From positions 39,812 to 103,811 of the forward strand of contig JASLYX010000003.1 in the NCBI GenBank assembly GCA_030739585.1: DNA of 64,000 nucleotides, given 5' to 3'. The stretch comes from Candidatus Bathyarchaeota archaeon (GTDB lineage Archaea > Thermoproteota > Bathyarchaeia > TCS64). The notes under the pieces were generated by a model. It saw only the letters and a list, made by a program, of their open reading frames with translations. It made no database searches and was not told the DNA's origin. Below are positions 5,940 to 62,400 of the stretch, in pieces (within the stretch, counting starts at the first letter, position 1; every line of letters starts with the position of its first letter). Position numbers and translations under genes: made by a program.

Positions 5940-7387
5940 AACACGCGCGCGCCGGTGATTACCGTTGTCCACTAAAGGTTCTCTGGAAATGCTGTCACGA
6001 TATTCTGAATGAGGGAAGTCCTGAATATTTGTCTCTCGTCAATTGTGCCGTTATTGTTACCTTGTCGGACGACGACCAGGTCTAGGCTCGGGACAACGAA
6101 GCAGTCATTCATGTTGTTTCCGCGGGTCCCGAATGCATCGTTTGGCACACCCTCTACTTCATCCAGGATCCAGAAAGTATAGCCGTAGTCGCTCGGAGTT
6201 TCACCGTCATCTCGAACGTATCTGCTGGTCGCCAGTTTTATCCAATCTTCTGGAACCAGCTGCTGGTCCTTCCATCGCCCTTTCCTCAGCCAAAGGTAGC
6301 CCAATCTTGCGTAGTCACGTGAGGTACAGGGGAAAGTGCTGGAGACTATTGTGTTGTATCCGTATTGGCTGTGGCTTCTGTCCGCACCATATGCGTTACA
6401 TCCTTCACTCCCGCCTGCTCCCCACCCAGGTTCATAGGAGAAGTTCAATTTTCTATCAGACCTGTAGGTTACCTCTCTGAACTGGTTGTCCCTGATACCG
6501 GGGGGCATCCCAATCTGCTTCAGAAACCTCTCGTAAGCCCAAGGCCCCACCATCTCGCCGGTGATGTTCCGCATGGCGAGGGCGAATTGCTCCAATCCGA
6601 AGCTGCTATAGTTGAACTCTTGCCCCGGATTGAACAGCAATGTATGATGGGAGGGTATCCCCTCGTAATGCCACCAGCCAAAACAGTACTCGTACATCTG
6701 GTGTGAGCCCGTGTACCCGGGATAGTGGTGTCTGGGGTTCGGTGCCAGCCAGGGCTCTGGGCCCTCATGCCCCGAAGTCATGGAGAGGACATGCTTGACC
6801 TTGATCTCCTTCTTCCTCTCGTCAGTAAGGGGCTGATCCCATATCTGAGGGATCAAAGAGTCTTCCCGGCTCTTCCCCACGAGATCGGTGTCAAGAGTTA
6901 CCAGGTTCTTGTATTCATCGAGGAAGACCCCAACCGCGGTGCCGAAGACAGATTTGGCGGAAGACTTCATATCGTTGCACATAGAAGGAGTCCAGGGCCT
7001 AGGCCCTCCCTCGGTTCCTCTCACATAGCTTTCGCTGATGAGGTGTCCCTTGTAGATTATTACGAGGGCTCCACCGTGTGTCTGAGTGAATTTTGCGTTA
7101 TTATGGAAGGTGACAGCGACTTTGAGCTTCTCAACGTCTACTCCCAAGGCTTCCGGGTCTCCGACTCGCCATCCCCCTTCCGTTTGGGGGGGTGGGTAAT
7201 AGTTTTCATCAAACATTTCTGCACACCATTAGTCGCGTATCCATTATCATTCTCAGAACCCCGTTTTTGGATTCGAGATCCGTGTAGAAGCAGACCACAA
7301 TTTCGGACCTCTTTCAAATCAACCTTTGGTAATTTATATGGTTCGGATCATAATTTGGTTTTGAGCCAGAAAGTTCGAACACGCGCG
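5940..7387. repeat. 10-bp direct repeat AACACGCGCG (5940-5949 and 7378-7387) flanking the serine hydrolase gene
   Basis: Identical decamer read on both sides of CDS 5972..7216. Confidence 0.7.
5972..7216 (-). CDS. serine hydrolase, beta-lactamase class C / 6-aminohexanoate-dimer hydrolase family
   Basis: SxxK (SSAKS), HVLSMTSG, FNYSS, LGYLWLRKGRW, VVPSLDLVVVR. Confidence 0.85.
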   Translation of the reverse strand: MFDENYYPPPQTEGGWRVGDPEALGVDVEKLKVAVTFHNNAKFTQTHGGALVIIYKGHLISESYVRGTEGGPRPWTPSMCNDMKSSAKSVFGTAVGVFLDEYKNLVTLDTDLVGKSREDSLIPQIWDQPLTDERKKEIKVKHVLSMTSGHEGPEPWLAPNPRHHYPGYTGSHQMYEYCFGWWHYEGIPSHHTLLFNPGQEFNYSSFGLEQFALAMRNITGEMVGPWAYERFLKQIGMPPGIRDNQFREVTYRSDRKLNFSYEPGWGAGGSEGCNAYGADRSHSQYGYNTIVSSTFPCTSRDYARLGYLWLRKGRWKDQQLVPEDWIKLATSRYVRDDGETPSDYGYTFWILDEVEGVPNDAFGTRGNNMNDCFVVPSLDLVVVRQGNNNGTIDERQIFRTSLIQNIVTAFPENL

Positions 7388-7712
7388 TTATATATTCATT
7401 TTTGATGTTATTCGGTGTTATTCTCGTTTCCTATGATATTATCTTATCTTTGTTTTCATTATCGATCGCGATTTTTTAGGAGTGTAGTTAGAAATAGGAA
7501 TTTTATGAATTCTGTAGGAAAATAACATTTTTTTCAAATGTTAGATCCGCATTTTCTAGAAGGGATAAAATTGTCAAGTGGGAGATGGCCCTGTTGATCC
7601 ATTCTTGGCTCATTCTAAGACATGAATTCACTCAACGAGTTAATAGCATCGCGAAACATAGGCACAACTCTAAAGTTAAGGATGCATCCATGATGGTTGA
7701 GGTGCTAGTCTG

Positions 7713-8057
7713 TTGACCGTTGACATAAAGGGTATGGCCAACCTCCTCCGTGACGGTGTCACTATGCTGAGCAGGAGCTGCCCCGAGTGCGGAACCCCCC
7801 TGTTCCGGCTGAAATCTAAAGAAATTGTTTGTAAGAACTGTAAGAGGCGGGTTGTCATAGTCCCTGAGGGGGAGGAGGCAACCGCTGAAGCCGAGATGCG
7901 TCTCAATTCATTAGAGAAGGCCATAGTCGAGAAGCTGGTCACTCTGGGCCAGTCCATGTCATATGAGAGCGACTTTAAGGCCCTAAGATCCCTCTCGGAA
8001 CTCATGGATTCCCTTCTAGGGAACCTAGAGAAGATCAGGGCTAGCCGTAAAGCCTAG
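7713..8057 (+). CDS. UPF0148 / Sjogren syndrome-scleroderma autoantigen 1 family Zn-ribbon protein
   Basis: MANLLRDGVTMLSRSCPECGTPLF...CKNC followed by a coiled-coil tail. Confidence 0.8.
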   Translation: MTVDIKGMANLLRDGVTMLSRSCPECGTPLFRLKSKEIVCKNCKRRVVIVPEGEEATAEAEMRLNSLEKAIVEKLVTLGQSMSYESDFKALRSLSELMDSLLGNLEKIRASRKA

Positions 8058-8920: not shown

Positions 8921-9095
8921 CTAGAAATATTCCTGATGCTTATCATCAAGATTATATAATGCGTGGTCCGGGTCAGACTCTTCTAGTCTCTTTTTTATGC
9001 ACGCGATAATAAGTATGAGAAAAGGAAAAGATTCTCGGACGATATTTCCTTTTCCTTAATTATATAAATCCTGTTGCATTTGGAAGGTATTTGAC

Positions 9096-14480: not shown

Positions 14481-14675
14481 CGATATCGGTTCTCAAGACA
14501 CCTCTAGGCCAGTTAAGGATTCCCTTCTCTGTTACGACTGCTAAATAGGGCCAAGGAACAGGGGGGTCCGTGGACCCTGTGAGGTTCCTCATCATCTTCG
14601 GATCCACAAAACAACGCTATTTATTATGGCTAGTCCTGAACTTTGCAGTCCTCCTGCGCGCGGAAATACCGTGGG

Positions 14676-15038
14676 CTACGACCCCATCACAATGAGTGTG
14701 TCGACGCCCTCCAGGACAAAGGCTTCAGATGCATTTTTGCGAACTATGGTCACCAAGTCATCGTTGGAGAACCGCCTCTCATGTGAGCGTTTCCTGAAAT
14801 ATCCACTTCTAGCCCCTAGGCCACATCTATAAACCATATGCCCTTGAGCCGGTGACTCTCTGATCCTTAACCCTGGCTCTATAGGGTAGACTAGAAATAG
14901 ATCCATTACACGCCAGAGCATATAGGATGCGAAGACTGGAATTACAATGTTTCTTAGGGGTAAAGCGTGAGTTAGACAACTAGTTGAATATTCCGTGGTT
15001 CTGTAAATGGCGCGCTCATAGGAATTTAAATAAAGCAT
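14676..15038 (-). pseudogene. possible decayed class I SAM-dependent methyltransferase
   Basis: IEPGLRIRESPAQG resembles a degraded motif I; FSNDDLVTIVRKNASEAFV resembles the post-motif-II helix; ends at TAG. Confidence 0.3.
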
Positions 15039-15129
15039 TCCACCTCACATATTGGAAGCGGGGAAAAATGAGAAAAACTACCGACCGTGGCAAATTCGGT
15101 TTACTGACCGGGATAATGGGGTCTCTCTG

Positions 15130-17076
15130 ATGCCCCGGATCACACGGAAAACCGCAATAGAGCTGGCCGTCCTTGGTCTGGTCGTCGTCATCGCCATTTT
15201 ATTCAGGGTTATACGCGTTCAATGGGGCGCTTATATGGACGCCTTTGATCCCCTCTTCCAGCTCAGGGTCACGGAATACATAGTGGAGAACGGCTATGCT
15301 TCATGGTTTTCGTGGCATGATACCATGAGCTGGTACCCTTGGGGGAGGAATATCGCAAGATCCTCTTATCCCGGCGTACCATTCACTGGTGCCTTCGTCT
15401 ACTTCGTCGCCCGAGCCATGAGTCTCGACCTCACGGTCTATCAGGTCTCCCTCTATTTCCCGGTGCTCATGGGGTCTATCACATGTATTTTCGCCTATTT
15501 TATAGGAAGAGACTTTGGTAATAGCTCCACTGGGCTTATGGCCGCGTTCTTTATGGCCATCAGTGAGGCGTTCGTCGGGCGCACCTTCCTTGGATTCTAC
15601 GACACCGAGAATATAGGCATTTTCGGGATGGTCGCCATTACGTTGTTTTATCTCCGGTCCCTAGACTCAGAGCGTTCGTTCAATGAGAGGCTCATATACG
15701 GGATAGTAGCGGGAATTACCCTAGGATACACCTTCGCCTCGTGGGGTGCCACGAGGTATATTGTGGGTCTACTGATCTTATTCAGCCTTGCAGTTCTAAT
15801 AACAGGAAGATTCGAGAAAAAACATATCATCTCTTATGCCCTAACTCTGGGAATCGGGTTAACTATCACACTTTTCATACCACGACTGGGAGTAAAATAT
15901 ATCCAGAGCACCGAGAATGTTGCAGCCATCCTACTGGGCGTTCTGATCATAATATACGAGTATACTCGCCAAAGACTGGAAGAACGGCAGACCATGCGGT
16001 TGATCAGCGGTCTGGTGATAGCTCTGATCCTGGGCGTTTTCATGCTTGAGGCACTGGGGGTAGCTAACCCTATAACGGGTAAATTCTGGAGAGTCATTAA
16101 CCCCATGCAATCTGCCGGAAATCCTCTGTCTCAGTCAGTAGCGGAGCACAAAAGATCTGTGTGGTCCAGCTTCTTCGGGACCTTCGGGATCGCCTTTCCC
16201 CTGGCTATCTTAGGGACATATTTCTCTATAAATGAACTTGATGATAGACGCCTATTCGGCTCGATATTTTTCATCACAGCCGCCTATTTCGCGGGTTCTA
16301 TGATCCGGCTCTCTCTTCTCCTATCCATCCCAGTGGGCCTGATGGCCGCGTTCGGACTCACGGAGCTCCTTAAGCCCTTCGTGGCCCTTTCTAAGAGGAA
16401 AGCGGTTAAGGGGAGACGGCGGAGAAAGGTTATATGGAAGGGGCTTAACAGGGAACTCTCCATCATCTTTGCTCTATTTATGCTCCTTGCAATCATGCCG
16501 ACCATCTGGGGCACATCTGAAATCTCTATAAGACCTACCTCCATGGCGTCCTCTAGCGTGCCCGCCCTCTTTGGTGATAGGTACCCTCAGGACTGGCTTC
16601 AGACCCTCAACTGGATGAGGGACAACCTAGAGGACAACGCTGTCGTGGTCTCTTGGTGGGACTACGGGTACTGGATCGAGGCTATCGGCAAGCAGACGAC
16701 CCTCGCCGACGGCGCCACAACCAATCGTTCCCAGATTGGATACATCGGCAGAATAATGATGCTCAATCAGACGGAGTCTCTTCCCATGCTCGAGGCCTAC
16801 GACGCCACCCATATCGTGGTATTCAACACATTCAACCCCAACAACCCGGGGAACCAGTGGCCCTTTGGGGACAACGCCAAGTGGTCTTGGATGGTCCGAA
16901 TAGGGGAACTGAACATCCTCGATTATGTCAATATAACAAACGGTGAGACCACGGCAAAGTATGATGAGTCGACCCTTAATAGGCTAATGAACATGTTACC
17001 AGATCCCGGTTACAAGCTGGTCTTTGCCTCTGAATTCAGATACGTTTTAGTCTATGAGTTAAACTATGACGCTTAG
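15130..17076 (+). CDS. aglB: oligosaccharyltransferase STT3/AglB
   Basis: FDPLFQ, WYPWGR, DTE, SVAEH, many TM helices, catalytic WWDYG. Likely ATG at 15130. Confidence 0.95.
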   Translation: MPRITRKTAIELAVLGLVVVIAILFRVIRVQWGAYMDAFDPLFQLRVTEYIVENGYASWFSWHDTMSWYPWGRNIARSSYPGVPFTGAFVYFVARAMSLDLTVYQVSLYFPVLMGSITCIFAYFIGRDFGNSSTGLMAAFFMAISEAFVGRTFLGFYDTENIGIFGMVAITLFYLRSLDSERSFNERLIYGIVAGITLGYTFASWGATRYIVGLLILFSLAVLITGRFEKKHIISYALTLGIGLTITLFIPRLGVKYIQSTENVAAILLGVLIIIYEYTRQRLEERQTMRLISGLVIALILGVFMLEALGVANPITGKFWRVINPMQSAGNPLSQSVAEHKRSVWSSFFGTFGIAFPLAILGTYFSINELDDRRLFGSIFFITAAYFAGSMIRLSLLLSIPVGLMAAFGLTELLKPFVALSKRKAVKGRRRRKVIWKGLNRELSIIFALFMLLAIMPTIWGTSEISIRPTSMASSSVPALFGDRYPQDWLQTLNWMRDNLEDNAVVVSWWDYGYWIEAIGKQTTLADGATTNRSQIGYIGRIMMLNQTESLPMLEAYDATHIVVFNTFNPNNPGNQWPFGDNAKWSWMVRIGELNILDYVNITNGETTAKYDESTLNRLMNMLPDPGYKLVFASEFRYVLVYELNYDA

Positions 17077-18312: not shown

Positions 18313-18562
18313 TCGGCTCCCTGAGTGATGGGCGCGTGGGTCATATCTCCCCTACGTATAGGCTGACTGTTTGCCAGATTCCGCAGGTTGTGCATCTGCT
18401 GTTTCACCGAATGTAAGGATGAAATTGGAGATAGACAAGGGGCGGTAGGGCTTAATAACCGAGGGTATATTTCAATTTTGTTTAAACTATATTTTTTGAG
18501 TGGGCGTAACCTTTATAGCAATTCGCCCGGAAGTAGCTTCAAAAATCCAGAGGTCATGTGTC

Positions 18563-19987: not shown

Positions 19988-20998
19988 ATGGGCGATGCAT
20001 TCCCAGTAGTGAAAGCAGCCGTAGTACAGGCCTCCCCCATCCTCTTTGATCGTGAGGCAACGAGTGAAAAGGCCCTCCATTTGATCTCTGAAGCCGCGCT
20101 AAACGGATCCAAACTAATCCTCTTTCCTGAGGCATTCATTCCGGCATATCCTAGAGGATTAAGCTTCGGCACTGTTGTGGGCGGCCGGAAACCTGAGGGA
20201 CGTCTGACCTGGGAGAGATACTGGACAAACTCGGTGGACGTGCCTGGACCCACCACCGATATATTGGGGGAGGCGGCGAGGAAAGCCGGTGCCTACCTAG
20301 CTATTGGGGTAATTGAGCGGGACAGTCAGTACAGTCGCGGCACTCTTTACTGCACGCTTCTCTACTTCGGGCCTGATGGCCGGCTGTTGGGCAAGCATCG
20401 GAAAATCATGCCCACAGCCGCAGAGCGGCTGATCTGGGGAGTCGGAGATGGCAGCACATTAACCACGATAGATACGGAGATCGGGACCCTTGGAGGATTG
20501 ATCTGCTGGGAGAACTATATGCCCCTGGCCAGGACCTTCATGTACAGCAAGGGCGTGGAGATCTATCTTGCCCCTACAGCCGACGCCCGGGAACGGTGGA
20601 ACAGCACCCTCCGACATATCGCCTTGGAGGGGCGTTGCTTTGTCCTAGGTTGCAACCAGTATGTAACCAAGAGCATGTACCCCGAGGACCTAGAGGGGAT
20701 TCAGGACCTCAAGGAGTACCCTGAGACGGTATGCCGGGGAGGAAGTGTCATCATCTCCCCTTTGGGTGACGTGTTAGAGGGTCCCCTCTACGATCGGGAG
20801 GGCATTCTATACGCCGACCTGGATCTTGCTCAAGTGGTACGGGGTCGTTTCGATTTCGATGCTGTTGGTCATTATTCTCGACCCGATATCTTTCAGCTGC
20901 AGGTAGACGAGCGCTCAAAGCCAACAGTTCTCTCAACCGGCGTCCCATTTAAATCGCTCAAGAGATCCAATGAAACTGTAACAAATAAAAACACCTGA
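19988..20998 (+). CDS. nitrilase / carbon-nitrogen hydrolase
   Basis: E-K-C triad: FPEAF, HRKIMPT, ICWEN; DAVGHYSRPD. Confidence 0.95.
   Translation: MGDAFPVVKAAVVQASPILFDREATSEKALHLISEAALNGSKLILFPEAFIPAYPRGLSFGTVVGGRKPEGRLTWERYWTNSVDVPGPTTDILGEAARKAGAYLAIGVIERDSQYSRGTLYCTLLYFGPDGRLLGKHRKIMPTAAERLIWGVGDGSTLTTIDTEIGTLGGLICWENYMPLARTFMYSKGVEIYLAPTADARERWNSTLRHIALEGRCFVLGCNQYVTKSMYPEDLEGIQDLKEYPETVCRGGSVIISPLGDVLEGPLYDREGILYADLDLAQVVRGRFDFDAVGHYSRPDIFQLQVDERSKPTVLSTGVPFKSLKRSNETVTNKNT
20672..20755 (+). repeat. 84-bp perfect direct repeat, copy 1 (inside the nitrilase gene)
   Basis: AGCATGTACC...GTCATCATC is identical to 23016-23099; the flanks differ on both sides. Confidence 0.95.
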
Positions 20999-21361: not shown

Positions 21362-22744
21362 ATGGTAAAGTCAAACTCTGAAAGGATCCCGTTGACTTGG
21401 ACGCCGGTACCCTTGGGCAGATGGCTGAAGATGTTCCTTGGAATGGGCTTGTTGTTGAGCTGTTTGTTCCTAGCTGGCAGATCGGTTTTACGCCAATCCT
21501 CAAGCCTAGATATAGATGAATCTTTACAACCTAAACCAACCCCTTCATCCTCACCTTCACCAAGTCCAAGTCCAAGTCCAAGTCCAAGTCCAAGTCCAAG
21601 TCCAAGTCCAAGTCCAAGTCCAAGTCCAAGTCCAAGTCCAACCCCTGACCCTAAACCTGACCTCTTCACCGGGGGGCATTACACGATTTATCAGGGCGGC
21701 GGGGGATACGGGTTTTATCAGGGCGAGCTTCGTCGGGAGGGGGAGACCTCCCCGGATGCGAGTTATATCATCCAGAGGGTGTTTGAGTTGGCGAGGGGGG
21801 GTGGGAAGATCGTTCTCCGGAAGGGGGTCTACCGTCTATCGAGGGGGCTGGTGATCCGGGAGGGGTGGCATTTCTACCTGGAGGGGGACGACGAGTACTC
21901 CACCATCCTACTGTACTCGGGGGAGCCTGCCCTGTATATTCTGCAGCTTCAGGGGAACAACCAGGGGACCAGGCTGAGTGGTTTCACTCTCTCGGGTTCC
22001 GAGGCTCGGGTGGCGCTCATCGTCAACACGACGTCCTATCAGAGTCTTGTGGAGCTCGACCATCTCCAGATAGGCTGGAATTATCGCTACGATGAGTGGG
22101 GCGGCGAGTACGAAAGGACGGACTTTGGCCTCTTCGTTTACATGAGCGATGTGTTGAGGGTCTCCGATTCGGATATTTACGGGAACGACGTCGCGGTGAG
22201 GATCGGCTCCGGGACGGATATGTTCTTCACGGATACGGATTTCGCGGTGCTGCCCATCGGGGGGGAGAAGTACAGGATAGGTTTCTGGGCCAACACGGTG
22301 GCCAACGATGGGTGGGGGATGAGAGTCTTCGAGGGCACGGTCTACATCTCCCGGTGCACCAACAACGCTCCCCTCTCCACGGGGTACCTGCTGAGGAGTT
22401 TCGCGCATCTGAGCGACAGCTACATGGAGAACGGGCGGAATCCGTTGGTGTGTGAGAACGCGGTGTTCAACGTCGAGAACAGCAACTTCATGAGTGAACC
22501 CGGCACTGTCGCGGTCATCAACGCCATGGGGAGCACGGGGTTCTTCGAGAACAATTTCGTCACGATCCATCCCGAGAACACGGAGATAATGTACCTCCTC
22601 GCCCACAGCTTCGACACCCCCACCGGGATGATCCATTTCAAGGACATCCGGGTTTTCGACTATGCCGGGAATCTGCCTGCGGAGTATTTTCTTGGGAACC
22701 CTGAGCACAGGGTCACGTCGGATATAATAATCGATGTTCCCTGA
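21362..22744 (+). CDS. membrane-anchored protein with Pro/Ser stalk and right-handed beta-helix (pectin-lyase-like) domain
   Basis: Hydrophobic N-terminal segment, (PS)n linker, DASYIIQRVFELARGGGKIVLRKGVY beta-helix cap motif, repeated short beta strands. Confidence 0.75.
   Translation: MVKSNSERIPLTWTPVPLGRWLKMFLGMGLLLSCLFLAGRSVLRQSSSLDIDESLQPKPTPSSSPSPSPSPSPSPSPSPSPSPSPSPSPSPSPTPDPKPDLFTGGHYTIYQGGGGYGFYQGELRREGETSPDASYIIQRVFELARGGGKIVLRKGVYRLSRGLVIREGWHFYLEGDDEYSTILLYSGEPALYILQLQGNNQGTRLSGFTLSGSEARVALIVNTTSYQSLVELDHLQIGWNYRYDEWGGEYERTDFGLFVYMSDVLRVSDSDIYGNDVAVRIGSGTDMFFTDTDFAVLPIGGEKYRIGFWANTVANDGWGMRVFEGTVYISRCTNNAPLSTGYLLRSFAHLSDSYMENGRNPLVCENAVFNVENSNFMSEPGTVAVINAMGSTGFFENNFVTIHPENTEIMYLLAHSFDTPTGMIHFKDIRVFDYAGNLPAEYFLGNPEHRVTSDIIIDVP
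21560..21640 (+). repeat. (CCAAGT)13 hexanucleotide microsatellite encoding Pro-Ser
   Basis: 13 perfect units at 21560-21637 plus CCA, counted directly. Confidence 0.97.
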
Positions 22745-23015
22745 ATGGGATCGGTGACCTAGCTCCGGCCAAGGGGAGATGCGCCGCGTGCGGGGACTTT
22801 TACTTCGACGGGGACGCCTCAAGGCTCCTGGACTTCAGGCTAAGAGTTGGGTAGTCTGGCGTGGGTCGCCATGGCTCGTTGGGCTGTTGGCCTAGAAGAT
22901 GCCGAAGAAAAGCCTCAGGAATCAGATGAAGATCCTGAGGGGTAGCAGGGCTAGGTTCACTATGAGGCCGACGAAGATCCCGATGCTCATGACGGAGAGG
23001 GATACGAGCCCCAGC

Positions 23016-23330
23016 AGCATGTACCCCGAGGACCTAGAGGGGATTCAGGACCTCAAGGAGTACCCTGAGACGGTATGCCGGGGAGGAAGTGTCATCATCG
23101 CTCCTCTTGGCGAGGAGCTGGCGGGGCCCCTTTACGACAGTGAGGGCATCCTGTATGCCGATCTGGATCTGGCCCAGGTGGTACGTAGCCGCTTCGACTT
23201 CGATGTTGTTGGCCACTATTCTCGCCCAGACATCTTTCAGCTGCTGGTCGACGAACGCTCCAAGCCATCCGTCCTTTCAAGGGTAGGAGGTCCGGCTGAG
23301 TCGCGCACGGAAATCGATGAAACGGAATAA
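23016..23330 (+). pseudogene. orphan 3' fragment of a nitrilase, starting at 84-bp repeat copy 2 (23016-23099)
   Basis: SMYPEDLEG...DVVGHYSRPD...DETE*; lacks the whole catalytic triad; upstream sequence is unrelated. Confidence 0.9.
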
Positions 23331-23370
23331 TCGTAGAGGCCGTTAGACCGGCTGTCTACGCGCGGGTTAA

Positions 23371-23535
23371 TCACGCGAGGAACTTGAGGGCGTTTTCCCC
23401 GAGTACGAGGGATTTCTGCTCGTCGGTGAGGAGCGGGAGCTCGCTGATCCTCTCTGCTTTTGCGTCTGAACACCCTGCCGCCTTGAATGACGCCAAGGAG
23501 ATCCGACTCAACCTTTCCGCTGATATCGTGACCAT
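23371..23535 (-). pseudogene. 54-aa chimeric deletion scar: Ldh_2-like N-terminus fused to an amidohydrolase-like C-terminus
   Basis: MVTISAERLSRISLASFKAAGCSDAKAERI joined to SELPLLTDEQKSLVLGENALKFLA*. Confidence 0.55.
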
Positions 23536-23681
23536 GTTATTACAACCTTAACGAGAAGTTTGTCGTCAAATCGTATAAGGTATCTCATAGGTGGAGCGTC
23601 GGGTCATTCGCGTCTAAGGGGGCAGCGCGCGCGGCCCATATTCTTTTCTTGACTTTCGGCAATGTACATTGTGAAGTTTCT

Positions 23682-24227
23682 TTGGTTAATTACGTCTATA
23701 TTGCTGCAAGTCTGGATGGTTTCATCGCCACAAAAGACGGGGGTCTCGACTGGCTTAATGAGATTCCTAATCCAGATCAAACCGATTACAGGTACGCTGA
23801 GTTCAATAGTGGTATCGATGCTATCGTGATGGGAAGAAATACATTTGAAAAAGTCTTGACCTTTGGTTTCTGGCCATATGATAAGCCTGTATTTGTTCTT
23901 AGTCATACTCTTGAAAGTGTACCCGATGACATTGTTGGTAAAGCTGAAATCGTTAAGGGTGATTTGAGGAATCTTCTTGACAAGCTGAAGAAACGAGGGC
24001 TTCAGAATCTCTACATTGATGGAGGGCGCGTTATTCAGAGCTTTCTCGAAGAGGACCTTATAGACGAAATGATCATTACGAGGGTTCCGATTCTGCTTGG
24101 GGAGGGCATTCCGTTATTCGGTAAAATTGAGAACAGTTTGAAGTTTAGCCTTAAGAAGACTGAGGGCTTCAATGAAACACTCGTTAAAAATCATTACATC
24201 CGCGTACGTGAGAAGAACCAGAGTTGA
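23682..24227 (+). CDS. dihydrofolate reductase family (RibD C-terminal-like) protein
   Basis: YIAASLDGFIA, IVMGRNTFE, LYIDGG, LIDEMIITRVPILLGEG; likely TTG start at 23682. Confidence 0.9.
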   Translation: MVNYVYIAASLDGFIATKDGGLDWLNEIPNPDQTDYRYAEFNSGIDAIVMGRNTFEKVLTFGFWPYDKPVFVLSHTLESVPDDIVGKAEIVKGDLRNLLDKLKKRGLQNLYIDGGRVIQSFLEEDLIDEMIITRVPILLGEGIPLFGKIENSLKFSLKKTEGFNETLVKNHYIRVREKNQS

Positions 24228-24256
24228 CAAAGAACCCTGATGTGCGCGCAACGGGG

Positions 24257-24381
24257 AAGAACATTCTCCGGTGTGAGGACCCGTATTCATATTCTCAGTA
24301 AAAGTCTTTCAATGCTTCTCGCGTCTCTGTGGGGAAGTCTCTCAGGGGTGAAATCGTGGTCATAGAATCACGTATTATTCT
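24257..24381 (-). pseudogene. possible Orc1/Cdc6 N-terminal remnant
   Basis: RIIRD / DHDFTPERLPHRD ... PENVL with a frameshift and a stop; resembles the Cdc6 pattern PxxLPHRE...PxN; no Walker A. Confidence 0.35.
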
Positions 24382-24462: not shown

Positions 24463-25227
24463 ATGGTTCAGCTTGCCGAGAAGTCGTGGCCCGAGGCGGG
24501 AAAGATCTTCGAGGAGAACGATGTTGCGATCCTCCCGGTGGGGAGCACGGAGCAGCACGGCCCCCACAACCCCCTGGGGACAGACCACCTCATAGCTTCG
24601 AGGATGTCCTTAGAGGTGGGGGAGAGGACCGGAGTCCCCGTGCTCCCTTTGATCCCGGTGGGGGTCTCCGTCCACCACAGGCAGTTCCCGGGGTCCCTCT
24701 GGGTGCCTCCCGCTGTCTTTAGGGACTACATAAGGGCAATCGCCCTGTCCGTTGCAAGCCACGGTATCAGGAAGCTTTTGGTGATCAACGGTCACGGGGG
24801 GAACACTCCGAGCCTTATGGAGGTCGCCGGGGAGCTCCGGAGGGAGCACGGGGTTTTCGCGGCTGTCGCCTCCGCCTTTCCGCCGATGGATGGCCATGCG
24901 GGGGAGGGGGAGACCAGCGCCAACCTCTACTTCCACGGCCACCTCGTGGATATGTCCAAGGCAGTGGACACGAAGCAGAACGAGGAGCTGGGAGGCCTCA
25001 AGGTCGAGGGATTCAACTTCATCTACCCGGGGAGATTCGCATGGGACACCCCTGATCTGAGCCCCACCGGGGTGATAGGGAACGCCGGGGTCACCATCAG
25101 AGCCACCACCGCTTCCGAGGAGAAGGGCCGGGAGGCCATGGAGCTCCACATCGACGACCTATGTGCCCTGGTGGAGGAGCTGAAGAAGGCGGAGATTAAA
25201 GGGCTCCTTCCAAAGCCACATAAATGA
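24463..25227 (+). CDS. creatininase / creatinine amidohydrolase family protein
   Basis: PVGSTEQHGPHNPLGTD, NGHGGN, HAGEGETS. Confidence 0.9.
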   Translation: MVQLAEKSWPEAGKIFEENDVAILPVGSTEQHGPHNPLGTDHLIASRMSLEVGERTGVPVLPLIPVGVSVHHRQFPGSLWVPPAVFRDYIRAIALSVASHGIRKLLVINGHGGNTPSLMEVAGELRREHGVFAAVASAFPPMDGHAGEGETSANLYFHGHLVDMSKAVDTKQNEELGGLKVEGFNFIYPGRFAWDTPDLSPTGVIGNAGVTIRATTASEEKGREAMELHIDDLCALVEELKKAEIKGLLPKPHK

Positions 25228-25470
25228 CTCAAGCCTGAGAGAGAGAAGTTCCCCCTAGAGAATGGGGTCCCTAGCCATGGCTGCTCAGAACCCTAACTAG
25301 GTGGGTATGATCCACCAACGCGCGCGGCTATTTACCTCTGGAATGACACACTCAATAAGGATCTTTATGAATTTGAAGCACTCAGCTTAATCTTCCCCAA
25401 GCTTACTCAGGGTGATACCGTGCACGAAAAAACCTATAAATTGTTTACGCGCTTGAACGGGAGCAGTATA

Positions 25471-39356: not shown

Positions 39357-39705
39357 CTTAGTAAACATTTTTCGAGGTATTCAAATCTTTTATCCGGGTT
39401 ATCAGAGATGTTGATTTTTGTTTAGGGGGTAAGAAACCAAGGAACCATCCTTCTGTCTTCTTGACCCTTGGATCCCTCGTCATCGGGAAGGTCATCTTTG
39501 AAGAGGGAAACGGGATCAGGAACTGCGCGCTGAGATGAGCCAGTCATGTCTATCGGAACACCCATCCCCTGAACACTCTAGCTCAAGAGATACCCGTTAA
39601 TCCAGTGCGTGAGAAAGGGGGCTATAATGCGAGACAGATGACCATATAGAAAGTACGGCCTGTTTCAAAGACCGAGGAGAACAAGAGATTATACTCAAAG
39701 GGACA

Positions 39706-50276: not shown

Positions 50277-50871
50277 GTTTAAGGATCAAATAGTCTCCTC
50301 GGGTTGACCTAGCCCACGGGGCCCGGAGGGTCTTAATGCCAAGAATCATGCAACATGTTTCGGCAGGGGGTTAAGGGGGAATCTTTGCTCTATCTGATTC
50401 TATGGAAAGAGGATCAATTGTAGGCGGAGAGTTTCCCCTTCTCTCAATATTGCTCGAAGAGGTCTCGATACCACCTTAGGGCGTACTCATCCATCTAGTT
50501 GTAGTCGTAAAAGTTGAGGCGCGCGCTATGCACTAGTCAGAACCCGTGGGCCGTCCTAATGATGATTTTCCCCTAGTAGATACTGAGGAGACGCGCTCTG
50601 CATAGGTCACCATAAATAATTCTGAAGAGCCTGCCAAGGACTTAGGTCAAAGTGAGTGTGGTGAGGTTCCCCCCCATGAAGTCAAAAATAGGGAGTGTGA
50701 TCCCCCGGAAGGTCACTGATGCAACTAGCTATCTGTCTTCGCGTTGTCTAGTAAATTAAGGGGGAAAGGGTTTAGTTGTTACGGGGAGCCCGCAACCGGT
50801 TCGAGTTGGGGAGACTCGCTGCTTTAAATCTCTTGAATGGGGATTCAATATATCTAAGGCTGATCGAATTG

Positions 50872-54281: not shown

Positions 54282-55118
54282 TTGGGTCTGGAAGGTATTA
54301 TAGTGAAATTCAGATTAGGGGATATGTCATGGATGGAGGCAGAGGATGCCTTCAAAAGAAGTGATACAGCAATCGTCCCCGTGGGCACGTTCCACGGCCA
54401 TGGCCCCACGCCAATAAGCATTGACTCCAGATCTGTGGCCTGGCTCGCGGAAAAGGTTGGGGAGAAGACCGGCCTCATCACACTGCCGTTGAGTCCCTTT
54501 GGGGAGAACGATAAACAAAAGTTCTACCCAGGTTCTATCACAATTGCCCCGAAAACATTGGAGTGTTATTACACTGACATCTTCAGGAGCCTCAAAAGGA
54601 ATGGGATCAATAGGATCATAGTCCTCAACGGCCACGGGGGGAATAGGGAGACAATCATTAGGGCCGGGAGGGCAGCTAGGGACTTCGGCATCGTGGTGGC
54701 TATCCCCGAGTGGTGGAGTATCGCAAAGGATGTGCTCCCAGAGCTCCATCCCGAGAAAGGTTCATATATGCAGGAGCTCGCCGTCTCTCTTTTCCTCAGC
54801 GGAAAGGATATAGCCGATTTCCAGAGCGCTGGGTACAAGGGGGAGTGGGGAGATAAGTACACGATGAGAGACGTCTTCGGGGAGGGGATTACCCCCGTCA
54901 CATTCAATACGTTCAAGTTCAAGGGAGGGATCATCACAGTCCCCATCCAAGCTTGGGACCTCGATGAGGAGGGCCCCCCGGAGTTGGGACCGGAAGTGGT
55001 GGATGGTCTCTACGAGAGGGGGAAGAAGATTATGGAAGGGATGGTAGATTACCTCGCCGAGTTCTCCGAGGCGTTCCAGAAAGCGGATCTCTCCAAAGCC
55101 CTGGAGTCAAGAGACTGA
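54282..55118 (+). CDS. divergent creatininase-family protein
   Basis: MSWMEAE, IVPVGTFHGHG...ID, NGHGGN; lacks the HAGxxETS motif. Confidence 0.8.
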   Translation: MGLEGIIVKFRLGDMSWMEAEDAFKRSDTAIVPVGTFHGHGPTPISIDSRSVAWLAEKVGEKTGLITLPLSPFGENDKQKFYPGSITIAPKTLECYYTDIFRSLKRNGINRIIVLNGHGGNRETIIRAGRAARDFGIVVAIPEWWSIAKDVLPELHPEKGSYMQELAVSLFLSGKDIADFQSAGYKGEWGDKYTMRDVFGEGITPVTFNTFKFKGGIITVPIQAWDLDEEGPPELGPEVVDGLYERGKKIMEGMVDYLAEFSEAFQKADLSKALESRD

Positions 55119-55643
55119 TATCCCTATTATCATAAAATTTCTCTGTCTCCACAATGGACTGGGATTTAAAAATTATCTATAAGGGATTGGTCCTTTTGCG
55201 CGCGCAACAGTTCCGCTGACCCCTCGTTAAGCCCTGAGCATCGAGGTGGCTGTCCCCATAAAGCTTGAAATCAAGAGGGGGTAGATCCACGAATCCGATG
55301 ATGATTTTCCGGGAACCCCCGGAGAACGTGAGTTCCTCAAGGACTGGTATCAGAACCATGACTTTCAGACTCCTCAAGAAGTAGGACCCAAGCCCTATTG
55401 TAATAAGAGGGGAGCTCCCTTTAGGGTGGTCCTAAGCTCCTCCACCAGGTTGCCATTTGAGATGCAACTCATAGCTAAAGCGTACGCGCCGAGCGGAGAG
55501 GGCTTTAGGAGATAGGTCTAAAGTTCGTGTAATGGACCATCAAATCGGATAAGAGAGAAAATATGCCCCTTTCCCGCTGATTTCGAGAAGTTTGTTGTAC
55601 AAGAGTTATTAAATAACGCACCAAAAAATGAAGGTGAACGTAT

Positions 55644-57248
55644 TTGTCGAATGCTAAGGTGATAAGGTGCGGGAATCTTATAGACGGCACGGGAGCGCCG
55701 GCTCTGGAGGATGCTGTCATCGTCATTGAGGGGTCCACTATCAAGACAGTTGGCATTGGATCAGACGTGAGCATACCTGAGGGCGCCCAAGTTATAGATG
55801 CCTCGGGCAAGACTGTGGTTCCCGGCTTCATTGACTCCCACGTCCACTTCTTAGGGATAGGATATAAGATTGGCCACCTCCAGCTCAGCGAAGCTGAGTC
55901 GGTAGAAGAGATAGTCGCAAACCTGGAAAAGTACATCGAATCCCGCGGTCTTCCTGAGGACAAGTGGATCCAAGGTAGAGGGTGGGATGACCAGAACCTC
56001 AATGAGAGAAGATATCCCAATAGGTACGATCTTGACGCCGTCTCACCAGACAACCCAGTAGCCCTGACTCGGGTCTGCGGACACATGATTGTCCTCAACT
56101 CTCGGGGCCTTGAGGCCTGTGGGATCAGCAAGAACACCTCTAACCCGGAGGGCGGGGTCATCGACAAAGATGACCAAGGAGAGCCTACAGGGGTCCTCAG
56201 GGATGCTCGCAGACTAGTCACCCAAGTAATACCACTCCCCTCCTATGACGAGTTGAGACAAGGGCTCAGAGACGCCTCCATGCTCGCTCACAGCCTCGGC
56301 ATTACCACGGTCCACGATGCAAGTCGCCCAGATGAGTCGGGATCCCACATGTCTACGGCACCCTATGTAGATGCAAGGGAGGAAGACGACCTCAGGATAA
56401 GAGCTCACGTGATGACAGGATATCCTCAGGAAGTGAGCGGAGACCAGTGGCTCAGCTTCGGCACGCTGAAGATAGGGATCGATGGCTCCATGGGAGCCCA
56501 GACGGCCCTTCTCTATGAGCCCTATGAGAACGACCCCTCTACCACCGGGGTCTATGTGGGAGACAAAGAGAGAAATAGAAAACTAGTAGCGGAGGCCCAT
56601 AAAAAGAAAGGGTTCATTGCTATCCACGCCATCGGGGACAGGGCCATCACCGAGGCCCTAAACCGGATCGAGGAGGTCCTCACCGCTGAGACAAGGAAAG
56701 ACCACAGATACCGGATCGAGCACTACGAGTACCCCATCAACGATGACATCAGACGGACTGTGGAGATGGGGGTGGTGGCCTCGATGCAACCTAACTTCGT
56801 GGGAGAGTGGGGCTGGCCCAATGGTATGTACGAGACCCGCCTCGGCAAGGAACGGAACCAGAGAACCAACCCCTACAACCGCCTCATGAACCTGGGCGTC
56901 CACGTATCCTTTGGCTCTGACGGCATGCCATTCCACGCCCTTTACGGCGTCTGGTCTGCGGTCAACCACCCGATAGCAAGGAATAAGATCACAGTCGAGG
57001 AGGCCATCCAGTGCTACACCCTTGAGGGAGCCTATGCGACCCGGGAGGAGCGTATCAAGGGCTCCATCGAACCTGGAAAGGTGGCGGACATCGCTATACT
57101 TGCATCGGACATAACCGGCCCGGATTTCATATTGAGTACAACAGAACCAGAGGTGATTGAGCGGGCGAAGAAGGAACAGAAGGAGACCAAAGCCTACATG
57201 ACCATCCTCAATGGTGAGATCGTCTACCGCGCGCAAAAGTATCGATAA
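55644..57248 (+). CDS. amidohydrolase 3 (YtcJ-like)
   Basis: PGFIDSHVH, GRGWD, RVCGH, KIGIDGSMG, HAIGD, RIEH, SMQP, GSD. Confidence 0.9.
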   Translation: MSNAKVIRCGNLIDGTGAPALEDAVIVIEGSTIKTVGIGSDVSIPEGAQVIDASGKTVVPGFIDSHVHFLGIGYKIGHLQLSEAESVEEIVANLEKYIESRGLPEDKWIQGRGWDDQNLNERRYPNRYDLDAVSPDNPVALTRVCGHMIVLNSRGLEACGISKNTSNPEGGVIDKDDQGEPTGVLRDARRLVTQVIPLPSYDELRQGLRDASMLAHSLGITTVHDASRPDESGSHMSTAPYVDAREEDDLRIRAHVMTGYPQEVSGDQWLSFGTLKIGIDGSMGAQTALLYEPYENDPSTTGVYVGDKERNRKLVAEAHKKKGFIAIHAIGDRAITEALNRIEEVLTAETRKDHRYRIEHYEYPINDDIRRTVEMGVVASMQPNFVGEWGWPNGMYETRLGKERNQRTNPYNRLMNLGVHVSFGSDGMPFHALYGVWSAVNHPIARNKITVEEAIQCYTLEGAYATREERIKGSIEPGKVADIAILASDITGPDFILSTTEPEVIERAKKEQKETKAYMTILNGEIVYRAQKYR

Positions 57249-57430
57249 ATAACGCAAGGAAAGAAAATAGAAACGCGCGCGTCTCTAAGGACTTTGAGGG
57301 GTAAGAAGGAGACACATGGAACTAGAAGCCTGTAAAGATAGCTCTAGAGCATTTACTGGACGTAGGGCTCGCGCAGGTTAATCTCTCCAATCAATAATAA
57401 GCACCATCACCAATGGATCAGCGTTAAACT

Positions 57431-58921
57431 ATGAAGATTATGGTTGAAAAGGCTGAATTGACTGAGTTCAAGGTCCCCCTGATCCTCCTCGGCGTGTCCA
57501 AAGAGGCGAGAGAGGACTCTTTGATAGGGGGCATCCAAGGGCCCTTAGGAAAAATGATTAAGAATGTGATCTCCCTCGGTGACTTTACGGGAAAGAAGGG
57601 AGAGACATCCCTCATCTATACCCAGGGTGCCATCCCCGCTGATAGGGTGCTCCTAGTCGGGCTAGGGGAGGGGGAAAGGATCACAATAGAGGGCATGAGA
57701 AAAACTATAGGCAGTGTCTCTAGGAGAGTGAGAGATATGGGGGTCGAAAAGCTTGGAGTGAGCCTGCCTCATATTTCCCGAGGAGTCCTAGATAAATACG
57801 AGGTTGCCGAGACCATCACGGAGGCCTTTGTCATGGGAAGCTACCAGAACATCCACTACCAGACCAAAGACTTGGACAAGTTTAAGGAGATCGAGGCACT
57901 CACGATATTCAGCCCTGATGCTGATCCCAGGGAGATTGATAAGAAGGCATCAAGTGGCAGTATAATCGGGGAGGCCGTGAACCTGTGCAGGACCCTCGCT
58001 TGGAGACCTGGGAACTATATAACCCCTACAAGGCTCGCTGAGGAAGCGGGGCGTCTAGAGGGCCTAGGAGTGAAGGTCACAGTCTTCAACAGGGCGGAGG
58101 CAGAAAAAATCGGCCTCGGCAGCTTTCTGGCGGTTGCCCAAGGCACAGAGGAGCCCCCAAAATTTATCATCATGGAGTATGGGGCCGAAAAGAAGGGCGA
58201 CACTGTGGTCCTTATCGGGAAGGGGATTACATTTGACTCAGGGGGCATCAGCCTCAAACCGGGGAGAGGGATGGAGGCGATGAAAGGGGATATGACCGGG
58301 GGCGCCGTGGTCATCGCAGCAATGGAAGCCATCGCGAGGCTCGGAATTAACCTCCATGTGGTAGGCATTGTCCCCGCCACTGATAATATGCCCAGCGGCA
58401 AGGCGCTCCATCCCGGAGACGTCGTCACCACCTATAGCGGTCAAACCTTCGAGGTTATCAGCACCGACGCCGAGGGCAGGATGATCCTCAATGATGCTCT
58501 CACCTACGCTGCTAAAAACTACGAGCCGGCAGCGATGTTCGATTTTGCCACGTTGACTGGATCAATTTCTATCGCCCTTGGAGAGCATGCCATAGGATAC
58601 TTTGCCAACGATGATACCGTGGCTGAGAGGATAGAGGAGGCTTCTAAAACCAGTGGGGAGAGGGTGTGGAGAATGCCACTATGGGAGGTTTACGACAAGC
58701 AACTTAAGAGCACTGTTGCCGACTTTAAGAATACAGGGGGCAGGCCTGGGGGAGCCATCACCGCCGCCCGGTTCCTGAATAAGTTCGTGATGGACGTTCC
58801 GTGGGTGCACATGGACATCGCCGGTGTCGACGGCCAGAAATCAAACGAAGGATATAATCCGAAGGGAAGTAAGGGCCCTGCCGTGAGGCTCATCTTGGAC
58901 GTGATCAGGAATTGGGGCTGA
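57431..58921 (+). CDS. pepA: leucyl aminopeptidase (M17)
   Basis: GKGITFDSGG, MKGDM, TDAEGR, ATLTG, HMDIAG. Confidence 0.95.
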   Translation: MKIMVEKAELTEFKVPLILLGVSKEAREDSLIGGIQGPLGKMIKNVISLGDFTGKKGETSLIYTQGAIPADRVLLVGLGEGERITIEGMRKTIGSVSRRVRDMGVEKLGVSLPHISRGVLDKYEVAETITEAFVMGSYQNIHYQTKDLDKFKEIEALTIFSPDADPREIDKKASSGSIIGEAVNLCRTLAWRPGNYITPTRLAEEAGRLEGLGVKVTVFNRAEAEKIGLGSFLAVAQGTEEPPKFIIMEYGAEKKGDTVVLIGKGITFDSGGISLKPGRGMEAMKGDMTGGAVVIAAMEAIARLGINLHVVGIVPATDNMPSGKALHPGDVVTTYSGQTFEVISTDAEGRMILNDALTYAAKNYEPAAMFDFATLTGSISIALGEHAIGYFANDDTVAERIEEASKTSGERVWRMPLWEVYDKQLKSTVADFKNTGGRPGGAITAARFLNKFVMDVPWVHMDIAGVDGQKSNEGYNPKGSKGPAVRLILDVIRNWG

Positions 58922-60603: not shown

Positions 60604-61013
60604 GGGTCATCGCCGTTGCAAGCAGTTCTATACATAGCTGGACAGAGGGGTCAATTTAAGGATGAGACTCACCCGGAGATTACTGGTTGATGAATGCCCG
60701 TCGTCGCGCCCGTAACGGATAAACTGCAACGTATAAACAAGACTTTGTGGAATAGACACAGCGAGACTCAAAGCATCAAGATCAGCTTCTTGTTTATCTA
60801 TTGCACCATCTCATCGAAGGACTTTGTCTTTATAAGGAAATGATCTAATTGATCAATCTTGATGAAATGGGTCTTTATGTACATAGGTATGTAAATATAA
60901 CATCGGATTAATTCAGGATTTAACAAAAACAGTTGAGGTGGATCCGTTGAATTGCAGAAAATTTTTCTAAGAACATGTTTTATCAGACCAACGTCCTCTG
61001 GCAAAGGATCTAG

Positions 61014-62138
61014 TTGACGGTTATAGATATCGCGAAATCTCTCATCTCGTTTGATACTTCGGGGCCACCGGCAAAGGAAATGCCTCTAGCCAAGTGGATA
61101 AGGGACTTCCTCATGGACCTCAGTGTGGATGTTGAGCTCCAGGAAGTCGAGAAGGACAGGGCCAACGTCATAGCAAAAATCGGGGAGGGGGCAGGACCAG
61201 GCCTGATCCTGTCAGGGCACATAGATACTGTGCTTGCTGGGGATCCAGCACTATGGAGCGTTTCAGGGCCATTCGAGCCCGTTGTAAGGGATGGTAGGGT
61301 CTACGGCCGGGGGGCTAGTGATATGAAGGGGCCTTGTGCGTCCATGATCCAAGCTGCAAAGGAGATCAGGAAGGAGGGCCTCAAAAGGCAACTCACCCTA
61401 GTCTTCACGGCGGGGGAGGACACCGGGGGTTGGTTCGTAGACCGAGTACTGAAAGAGGGAAAAGTGACTAAGGAGGAGGCCCGCTTCGGTGTAGTGGGGG
61501 AGCCCACTATGCTGAAAGTGGGCCGCACCCATAAAGGGTATGCCTACGCCTCGTTGGTGGTGAACGGCAAGGCGGCTCACAGCAGCAGACCTGAAACGGG
61601 GATCAATGCGATCACAAGGGGAGCGGAGGTCCTCCGAGGCATCTCAGAGCTCCAAGACGAGCTCAACGGGAGCCCTCATCCCCTCATGGGTCCATCCACC
61701 ATTAAGCCCACACTCATTAAGGGAGGCATCAAATCAAACATCATCCCAAACCGCTGCGAGATCACATTGAATGCTCGACTCATACCTGCCCATGCAGATG
61801 TGCATACTATCAAAGGCTGGTTGAGGAGGCTAATTGGGGGGAGTGATAAAGGTTACGAGGGCTCGGTGGAGGTAACCGTACCTAAGGTCAGGAATCCCCT
61901 GGATATTCCTGGGAACAGCGAGATCGTAAAGCTTCTTACAAGAGTCCTGGGATCCGAGCCCGTCGGGGTGTCATATTTTTCCGAGGCAGGAGACTATACC
62001 GAGGCGGGGATACCGACAGTGTTATGTGGCCCAGGCAGCATTGATCAGGGCCACACCGCTAACGAGTTCATAGCGATAGACCAGCTAAAGAAGGGCGTGA
62101 AGGTGTATAAGAGGATAATTGAGGAGATCTGCCTATAA
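61014..62138 (+). CDS. M20 ArgE/DapE-like deacylase
   Basis: LSGHIDTV, YGRGASDMKG, AGED, VGEPT, GKAAHSS, GPG...GH. Confidence 0.9.
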   Translation: MTVIDIAKSLISFDTSGPPAKEMPLAKWIRDFLMDLSVDVELQEVEKDRANVIAKIGEGAGPGLILSGHIDTVLAGDPALWSVSGPFEPVVRDGRVYGRGASDMKGPCASMIQAAKEIRKEGLKRQLTLVFTAGEDTGGWFVDRVLKEGKVTKEEARFGVVGEPTMLKVGRTHKGYAYASLVVNGKAAHSSRPETGINAITRGAEVLRGISELQDELNGSPHPLMGPSTIKPTLIKGGIKSNIIPNRCEITLNARLIPAHADVHTIKGWLRRLIGGSDKGYEGSVEVTVPKVRNPLDIPGNSEIVKLLTRVLGSEPVGVSYFSEAGDYTEAGIPTVLCGPGSIDQGHTANEFIAIDQLKKGVKVYKRIIEEICL

Positions 62139-62400
62139 ACTGTAGAACATGAGGCCAAAAAAAATCTATTTCCTAGTTTGACATAAAATAAGTTCTTCAT
62201 ATCGTTTTACTGGCTATAATATATGGCGCGCGCTCTTTAGTTTCCTCGTAGCAGGTGTCACCATCTCTAAGGGACGTAGGCAAGGGATACTAGAAACATG
62301 TATCACTTCAAGCGGAATCGGGTTTAAAAATTGGTAAATAATGAGACGCAAAGAGGTCATAAGTTAGCTCTGCATACCTGAGGCCATCATCAAGAACCAG

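Follow-up and report, generated by a model that had tools for sequence, protein, structure and literature searches.

Alternating CG runs concentrated in the non-coding DNA of a Candidatus Bathyarchaeota genome, and a tentative reading of their origin

A stretch of 64,000 nt from an uncultured marine archaeon labelled Candidatus Bathyarchaeota (assembly GCA_030739585.1, contig JASLYX010000003.1, positions 39,812 to 103,811; hereafter, the window) was analyzed for alternating CG runs, (CG)n, which are concentrated between its genes. Scanning the window, which has a G+C content of 52%, for maximal alternating C/G runs of at least 6 nt returned 18 runs, 7 of them at least 8 nt long. The split into coding and non-coding DNA was based on gene calls transferred from public contigs of the same species. 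Non-coding DNA amounts to 11,748 nt (18.4% of the window) and has a GC content of 44.3% vs 53.7% in genes, yet it contained 13 of the 18 runs, i.e., all seven of at least 8 nt and six of the 11 shorter ones. The remaining five, all of 6–7 nt, are in genes (1736, 8770, 27241, 27935, and 57228). These results bear out a preliminary description made from the sequence alone, which had listed the same 18 positions, placed the seven long runs outside genes and only five shorter ones within them, and pointed to palindromic runs, of which TTGCGCGCGCAA (55196) and ACGCGCGCGT (57273) are present. The non-coding runs, the longest in-gene run and the pseudogene that holds two of the former are as follows.

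5944..5952: CGCGCGCGC, 9 nt, tandem spacer of 35% GC; distances of 19 nt to the preceding stop (beta-lactamase-fold gene) and 66 nt to the following start (DUF362 gene)
7382..7387: CGCGCG, 6 nt, divergent spacer, with TTATATATTC directly after
14481..15129, + strand: decayed Metallophos (phosphoesterase) pseudogene between a 113-aa gene and STT3
14656..14662: GCGCGCG, 7 nt, in the Metallophos remnant, adjoining a 13–15-nt deletion
15010..15015: GCGCGC, 6 nt, in the Metallophos remnant, 9 nt upstream of the conserved STT3 TATA box (TTTAAATA)
23359..23364: CGCGCG, 6 nt, after a partial CN_hydrolase duplicate and 28 nt from its stop
23625..23633: GCGCGCGCG, 9 nt, 48 nt upstream of the start of a low-GC RibD_C gene, with TATA-like CCCATATTCTTTT directly after
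24244..24249: GCGCGC, 6 nt, 16 nt past the RibD_C stop
25319..25326: CGCGCGCG, 8 nt, convergent spacer between creatininase and cupin genes
39525..39530: GCGCGC, 6 nt, convergent spacer between NadA and endonuclease III
50519..50526: GCGCGCGC, 8 nt, tandem spacer that also holds an MFS transporter gene remnant (50621–50686)
55198..55205: GCGCGCGC (in the palindrome at 55196), 8 nt, in a DUF2807 gene remnant (~55155–55423)
57228..57234, + strand: CGCGCGC, 7 nt, end of Amidohydro_3, the only in-gene run of at least 7 nt
57274..57281: CGCGCGCG (in the palindrome at 57273), 8 nt, where the promoter of a 346-aa gene, deleted here together with an AlkZ-like gene, used to be; the Amidohydro_3 stop is 25 nt before the run
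62226..62233: GCGCGCGC, 8 nt, convergent spacer between M20 peptidase and hisI, 262 nt long (vs 27 nt in the relative L171) and 38% GC

The excess of runs in non-coding DNA was evaluated against several null models. When each non-coding segment was shuffled separately with its dinucleotides preserved (n = 1000), 0.031 runs of at least 8 nt were expected vs 7 observed, an enrichment of ~200-fold, and 0.98 runs of at least 6 nt vs 12 observed. It rose with length, from 1.5-fold at 4 nt through 3-fold at 5 nt and 5-fold at 6 nt to ~170-fold at 8 nt. Dinucleotide shuffles of the whole window (n = 100) gave means of 0.16 for CGCGCGCG (4 observed) and 0.17 for GCGCGCGC (5 observed), and no shuffle reached the observed count of either word; for the two together in non-coding DNA, nine matches were found vs ~0.04 expected under a first-order Markov model. 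Along with CGCGCGC, they are the top enriched 7-/8-mers of the non-coding DNA, where the 8-mers composed only of G and C are mostly alternating, vs 0 of 266 in genes. The enrichment is specific to CG, as (AT), (AC), (AG), (CT), and (GT) runs of at least 8 nt occur only 0–2 times each across the window and do not match the CG excess.

Additional same-species sequence flanking the window (19.5 kb, of which 2.2 kb or 11% is non-coding), which had not been used in forming the hypothesis, contained only two runs of at least 7 nt (10 and 7 nt), both of them non-coding, and the prediction held; the 10-nt run is the longest in the 83.5 kb of window and flanks. As controls we profiled 32 loci of 45–58% GC (572 kb), mostly bacterial aminopeptidase homologue loci, leaving out those above ~58% GC because a simple gene caller is unreliable there. 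The controls had 27 runs of at least 8 nt in coding DNA and one in non-coding DNA. Given that control genomes put such runs in genes, it is fair to call the distribution in the window, where all long runs are in the smaller and AT-richer fraction, the opposite of expectation. The intergenic (CG)n excess is thus a confirmed, solid, and unusual observation. The depletion in genes is ordinary: no run of at least 8 nt was found in 52 kb of coding DNA, in which 60% of the arginine codons are AGR (AGA/AGG) and CGC accounts for 5.1 per 1000 codons, and runs are scarce there because CGC is rare and an in-frame (CG)n needs CGC beside GCG. The non-coding excess is not ordinary.

The long runs form a class of their own. 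Non-coding runs of 2, 3, 4, 5, 6, 7, 8, and 9 nt numbered 518, 103, 33, 12, 4, 1, 5, and 2, respectively, dropping geometrically up to 7 nt and then reappearing as a separate group at 8–9 nt, to which the flanks add one 10-mer. The counts at 8, 9, and 10 nt (5, 2, and 1) are compatible with an 8-bp core and random flanking bases, and both phases (GCGCGCGC and CGCGCGCG) are present. Some of the runs are islands within spacers of only 35–38% GC. No common motif was found in the sequences flanking the runs, a repeat search of the whole window revealed no larger repeat or miniature inverted-repeat transposable element (MITE) family containing them, and the only match of the Rfam covariance models in the window was a tRNA-Leu, both at the gathering threshold and at E ≤ 5. 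Imperfect versions of (CG)4 are likewise in excess in the non-coding DNA, with nine one-mismatch and 35 two-mismatch loci vs seven perfect ones, and C>T or G>A accounts for three of the five one-mismatch variants that are internal. Two other similarities were noted near the runs. A C box-like 13-mer, ATGATGATTTTCC, is present in two spacers (50559–50571 and 55298–55310), in each case on the downstream side of a long CG run; in 11.7 kb, about one exact repeat of this length is expected by chance, and the copy at 55298 is inside the DUF2807 remnant. Creatininase-family paralogues at 24463–25227 and 54333–55118, each adjoining CG runs, have a 48-nt stretch in common at 71% identity.

Contigs of related organisms share ~72–81% nucleotide identity with the window and keep its gene order. 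They are mostly of 59–62% GC (39% in L194), vs 52% here, and mostly 7–10% non-coding (15% in L088 and L187), vs 18% here. Runs of at least 6 nt have the same ~ninefold non-coding bias in the relatives, and the long class is restricted to the lineage of the window: there was one run of at least 8 nt in the 11.4 kb of non-coding DNA of the relatives vs seven in 11.7 kb here, the sole case being a 10-mer located 9 nt past the M17 stop in L090. The genes lost here as compared with the relatives include those for a phosphoribosyltransferase, the Metallophos phosphoesterase (intact in L184, L187, and L192), two AsnC regulators, a radical-SAM protein, Amidohydro_2, ATC_hydrolase, peptidase S9, a methyltransferase, DUF2807, the 346-aa protein, the AlkZ-like protein, and a 3-hydroxyacyl-CoA dehydrogenase. 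Much of the window's non-coding DNA consists of recognisable remnants of several of them, and most of it is debris of genes kept in the relatives. The comparison with L171, L089, L184, L187, and L192, in which at least a dozen genes are seen to be lost, shows that this lineage has recently gone through a wave of gene loss while drifting towards A+T. Several runs had been described as bordering pseudogene scars, and this is the case for 14656 and 15010 in the Metallophos remnant, 55198 in the DUF2807 remnant, and 57274 where the relatives hold two more genes. Two open reading frames (ORFs) overlap these remnants, i.e., a mechanical 120-aa ORF antisense to the Metallophos pseudogene (14676–15038, − strand), which is probably spurious, and an ORF of 60–66 aa called by some pipelines across the DUF2807 remnant (55177–55377, − strand), which is probably no gene.

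The runs themselves were not conserved at the matching positions of relatives at ~80% identity. The flanks of five runs could be aligned to relatives, and the relatives differed from the window in all five, often with a partial seed such as GCGCC. At 14656 the relatives read TGCGCCGG (an ICAGD motif) vs TGCGCGCGG in the window; at 15010 they read CACCAC, GGCTGC, or GCCCAC vs GGCGCGC; and at 57274 they read ACGAAGCGCC or ACGAAAGTC vs ACGCGCGCG. The aligned position of 55198 reads ATGCGTCCA in the relatives and TGCGCGCGCA in the window, the change from the relatives' state being ATGCGTCC to TGCGCGCGC, and at 23359 the relatives have a sequence unrelated to CGCGCG. Turnover in the reverse direction was also detected, as the window reads CCTGCG at a position upstream of the creatininase TATA box that is GCGCGC in relatives. 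The differing sequences at the aligned runs and this reverse case indicate that the runs originated recently and in place and turn over; they were apparently made from partial seeds and are neither inserted units nor relics of ancestral genes. A templated origin at a junction was also considered for the run at 25319, where a 16-mer resembles the hisC gene of L171 with one mismatch, but the hisC gene of the window is without it, and the resemblance was treated as a coincidence.

To profile variation within the species, we used same-species contigs that are 99.4–100% identical to the window and are found repeatedly in assemblies from Tara Oceans, JGI, and NCBI, among them the metagenome-assembled genome (MAG) GCA_002726865.1, along with a second strain that is 98.3% identical. 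None of the 18 runs varied in length in any covering contig (24 contigs, 98.3–100% identity). The sole change within any run was a synonymous C-to-T in the 98.3% strain, in which the in-gene run at 57228 reads CGTGCGC. All 16 small non-coding indels between strains were in homopolymers or in (GA), (TG), or (AT) tracts and none in CG runs. The uniform length among strains indicates that the runs are not hypervariable microsatellites. Strain divergence is too low for a test of constraint (four runs, 32 nt, spacers differing by ~4%, p ~ 0.27).

Other parts of the window do differ between strains or relatives. A perfect (CCAAGT)n hexanucleotide array at 21536–21659, in a gene for a 460-aa protein of no known family (21362–22744), is strain-variable in length, with 24 additional bases in one strain and a 321-aa version encoded on another contig. 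A direct repeat of 270 nt (84% identity, 20667–20936 and 23011–23280) contains a copy of the CN_hydrolase 3′ end inside the ORF 22899–23330. In L172 the RibD_C gene is directly beside CN_hydrolase, so that the ~2.3 kb between the repeat copies looks missing, and L173–L175 align in two pieces to this stretch; this would be a structural difference between strains, probably due to recombination between the 270-nt copies. The RibD_C gene (dihydrofolate-reductase-like, 23682–24227, in the region 23455–24336) is of low GC (0.51/0.31/0.43 by codon position), replaces ~2.3 kb with three genes in L184 and looks like a foreign insertion, and this putative insertion is flanked by the runs 23625 and 24244. 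No match to E. coli or other enterobacteria was found, and an origin there was rejected. The taxonomic label is uncertain, as the nearest named relatives of two encoded proteins disagree, being Heimdallarchaeota/Asgard-labelled MAGs for the M17 peptidase (57431–58921, 63–65%) and Bathyarchaeota-labelled MAGs for the STT3 glycosyltransferase (15130–17076, up to 80%), a discrepancy that suggests either mislabelled MAGs or a transferred peptidase gene.

The location of the runs relative to genes, promoters, and terminators followed no rule. Tandem spacers contained seven runs in 5.6 kb, convergent spacers three in 2.4 kb, and divergent spacers three in 3.7 kb, the densities in tandem and convergent spacers being similar. 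The earlier statement that all three spacer types are occupied is therefore correct for the runs as a whole but not for those of at least 8 nt. Divergent spacers are 32% of the spacer DNA and hold no such run (0 of 7 in the window and 0 of 8 when the flank is counted; p ~ 0.05), and every long run lies on the downstream side of a gene end. Of the 13 non-coding runs, seven are 16–91 nt past a stop codon, in agreement with the ~15–100 nt first reported for many of them, and the distances to stop codons (16–294 nt) are as expected of random positions in the spacers. Among 53 upstream regions listed, nine of which are in-gene stretches, two had a run beside the TATA box and the others had ordinary AT-rich boxes. 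No T-tract or hairpin rule after stop codons was seen on reading of all spacers. Overall, the runs showed no bias in position with respect to gene starts and stops, TATA boxes, or the type of spacer. Preferences for particular kinds of spacer were rejected as well: spacers with and without runs were similar in GC content (0.444 vs 0.435) and CpG frequency (38 per kb in both), and by our own tally the density of runs in rearranged spacers was equal to that elsewhere, many runs being in rearranged spacers because such spacers are most of the non-coding DNA. Lacking both a positional rule and conservation in relatives, the runs are unlikely to be a gene-tied regulatory signal.

Two readings remain after 84 kb. 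The one we prefer, at a probability of roughly 0.38, is that the runs are the footprint of a lineage-specific, gene-independent process that acts on CG cores and is tolerated only outside genes; we infer that the cause is such a process, with an enzyme involved, and not selection at each site. A DNA transaction would act on CGCG/GCGC cores and extend them to about four repeats, the runs arising in place by a few substitutions or 1–2-nt indels on CG-rich sequence. Such a transaction could be a mismatch-repair bias linked to methylation, nicking or cutting at a specific sequence or structure with subsequent fill-in, or biased recombination or uptake. The products would survive outside genes only, as an in-gene insertion of 2 or 4 nt would shift the reading frame and an in-frame (CG)4 would further require rare CGC codons beside GCG. 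A process is preferred because of the origin in place within dead genes, the lack of a positional rule, the decayed copies, and a lineage rich in gene debris, and the numbers of mismatch variants are about those expected of birth followed by neutral decay.

Several observations weigh against the process. No CG-specific mutational mechanism of this kind has been documented, and its key step is one that we infer. The rise at 8–9 nt over the geometric fall requires a jump in length. Tandem duplications of 4 nt showed no general excess in non-coding DNA (51 observed, 47.5 expected), so the signature of general 4-nt staggered-cut duplication is absent, and only the CG-based duplicates stand out (9 found vs 0.08 expected). 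The near-cognate words CACG and GCAC were not depleted as a repair bias of the very short patch (VSP) type predicts, in a test of low power, and unconverted CA and TG steps directly adjoin several runs. No event at CG runs was found among the present-day strain differences, and the drift of the lineage towards A+T should erode the runs. The idea that runs mark large deletion junctions, suggested by a DNA alignment at 15010, was rejected when protein-guided, gap-tolerant realignment placed the main Metallophos deletion at ~14800; the junction-associated cases left after realignment are the run at 14656 and a 5-nt GCGCG at 18332, and the ~970-nt radical-SAM deletion has a 15-nt junction segment (GATGGGCGCGTGGGT). 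The junctions at 14656 and at the ~970-nt deletion speak in favor of the process. Finally, a sharp, phase-indifferent minimum of 8 bp also fits a structure-recognised site under selection. Reverse transcriptases of the DRT3 type were considered as a source and rejected, as they make (TG)/(CA) and not (CG).

The second reading, possible though less probable in our view than the process, is that alternating CG of at least 8 bp in any phase is a selected, dispersed cis-element, read by its shape by a putative lineage-specific protein and kept by selection or molecular drive. The protein might bind a specific structure or prefer the Z form, might organise chromatin or the nucleoid, or might be a methyltransferase, and sites would evolve from near-matches wherever non-coding DNA permits. 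The separate length class with its 8-nt minimum, the 8-, 9-, and 10-nt counts that fit an 8-mer core, the ~200-fold enrichment, the islands in AT-rich spacers, and the runs seemingly perfected from partial seeds are all consistent with such a site. The non-coding runs are also identical in all strains, including the 98.3% strain with its ~4% spacer divergence, but this conservation is without statistical power (see above). On the other side, positional regularity relative to genes is absent, several runs are within dead genes, the matching spacers of relatives are without runs, one-mismatch variants are about as common as perfect runs, and we have no candidate for the binding protein. The undescribed dispersed cis-signal first proposed for these runs holds in part: the pattern is non-random, CG-specific, and opposite to that of the controls, but it follows no positional rule and is not conserved. 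Of the forms then suggested for it, the runs may be a methylation target, a protein-binding site, or a recombination hotspot. That proposal was to fall if the runs matched a dinucleotide-preserving null or, as simple slippage, showed neither conservation nor positional bias; conservation and positional bias both failed, whereas the null was not matched and slippage does not describe the pattern. An orphan N6/N4 DNA methyltransferase gene near the right end of the window would suit a selected site. This gene (L191, 2075–3082, − strand) is ~7 kb beyond the right end and adjoins hisG. Among solved structures, its best relative is Thermus TTHA0409 (2zie, E 6e-36), with N4-cytosine methyltransferases next; it has no restriction gene beside it and a 7-nt CG run 139 nt upstream.

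Far less probable is the Z-DNA supercoiling sensor of the preliminary description, in which negative supercoiling would flip the runs into the left-handed form and thereby tune nearby promoters. (CG)n is the sequence most prone to Z-DNA, and a structural role would account for the length threshold and for phase being immaterial. Eight bp is marginal, however, and no more than the shortest (CG)n that supercoiling by itself would flip, as the energetics of Peck and Wang reportedly assign ~10 kcal/mol to two B–Z junctions, by which (CG)4 is said to need a superhelical density beyond about −0.06 to −0.1. No long run (0 of 8) is in a divergent spacer, where negative supercoils accumulate, and the location of the long runs downstream of gene ends, where transcription gives positive supercoiling, argues against a sensor. 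Moreover, the distance to TATA boxes is inconsistent, and alternating purine-pyrimidine runs of at least 10 nt are near random in the non-coding DNA (16 observed, ~11 expected).

Just as improbable is a promoter element, similar to the TFB recognition element (BRE), or a terminator element of archaeal transcription units. Five cases are 0–10 nt upstream of a TATA-like box (5944 on the reverse strand, 7382, 15010, 23625, and the creatininase GCGCGC in the relative L184), but three of the runs beside TATA-like boxes are directed antisense into a gene's 3′ end, and the great majority of the listed upstream regions have a clear TATA box and no CG run. For a terminator, the seven runs past stop codons may be joined by the 10-nt run after the M17 stop in L090 and a 6-nt run after hisI in L089; against it, no T-tract or hairpin rule exists after the stops, and distances of up to ~100 nt from a stop are the random expectation in these spacers.

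The weakest reading, an ordinary dinucleotide microsatellite made by replication slippage, or chance, suits runs that are neither conserved nor positionally biased but is largely refuted, as the 18 runs showed no length polymorphism in 24 contigs while strain indels hit other simple tracts, comparable (AT), (AC), and (AG) runs are absent, the counts peak at 8–9 nt with no tailing off, and the shuffles exclude chance.

The runs can be compared with several known systems. HIP1 of cyanobacteria (GCGATCGC) is likewise a G+C-rich 8-bp palindrome that is over-represented, lineage-specific, and without a role tied to individual genes, and its excess is said to have been attributed by Elhai in 2015 to methyltransferase or repair bias. 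It differs in being one fixed word that occurs at ~1 per kb and is common in genes, whereas the CG runs are of two phases, occur at ~1 per 8–9 kb and never in genes, with only seven to eight sites sampled. DNA uptake sequences (DUS of Neisseria and USS of Haemophilus) are also short lineage-specific words with many one-mismatch copies that evolve in place. They accumulate by drive and not by local function, and are non-palindromic words of 9–12 nt found at ~1 per kb, also in genes, whereas the CG runs are at ~1 per 9 kb and in non-coding DNA only; we know of no uptake system or natural competence in this organism. Z-DNA-forming (CG)n tracts of plasmid models and eukaryotic promoters belong to the same sequence class. 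Functional tracts of this kind are usually at least 12 bp long and upstream of promoters, unlike the 8–10-bp runs downstream of gene ends. Alternating CG tracts are described, in the discussion of one study, as hot spots for deletion and recombination (PMC13174585), and the CG runs resemble such rearrangement-prone tracts in lying in rearrangement-scarred DNA. Phase-variable contingency loci of bacteria are short tandem repeats near genes as well, but their length varies by strain and they are in the promoters or 5′ ends of specific genes, neither of which applies here. Repetitive extragenic palindromes and bacterial interspersed mosaic elements (REP/BIME), MITE-type repeats, and the GC clusters of yeast mitochondria are G+C-rich palindromic islands in AT-richer intergenic DNA too; these elements are 20–150 bp long with conserved flanks, while the CG runs share nothing beyond the run and arose in place, not by insertion.

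Across prokaryote genomes, one survey found that GC6 and GC8 patterns are generally suppressed (PMC4060949), which makes the intergenic excess in this lineage unusual, and short tandem repeats are reported to be fewer in archaea than in any other domain (PMC12699852). No comparable pattern in archaea was described in the literature searched. That (CG)4 is the most over-represented non-coding word and yet absent from genes runs counter to the prokaryote trend, and it does so in a species that has a public draft genome (GCA_002726865.1) and is abundant in Tara Oceans data. If the runs are selected or driven, they point to a predicted protein that recognises alternating CG, and a (CG)4 element read by shape would be an archaeal counterpart of HIP1 and the uptake words, built on the most Z-prone sequence. 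If a mutational or repair process made them, the runs would record, in readable form, a DNA transaction not described so far, in an archaeon whose genes and G+C are being lost.

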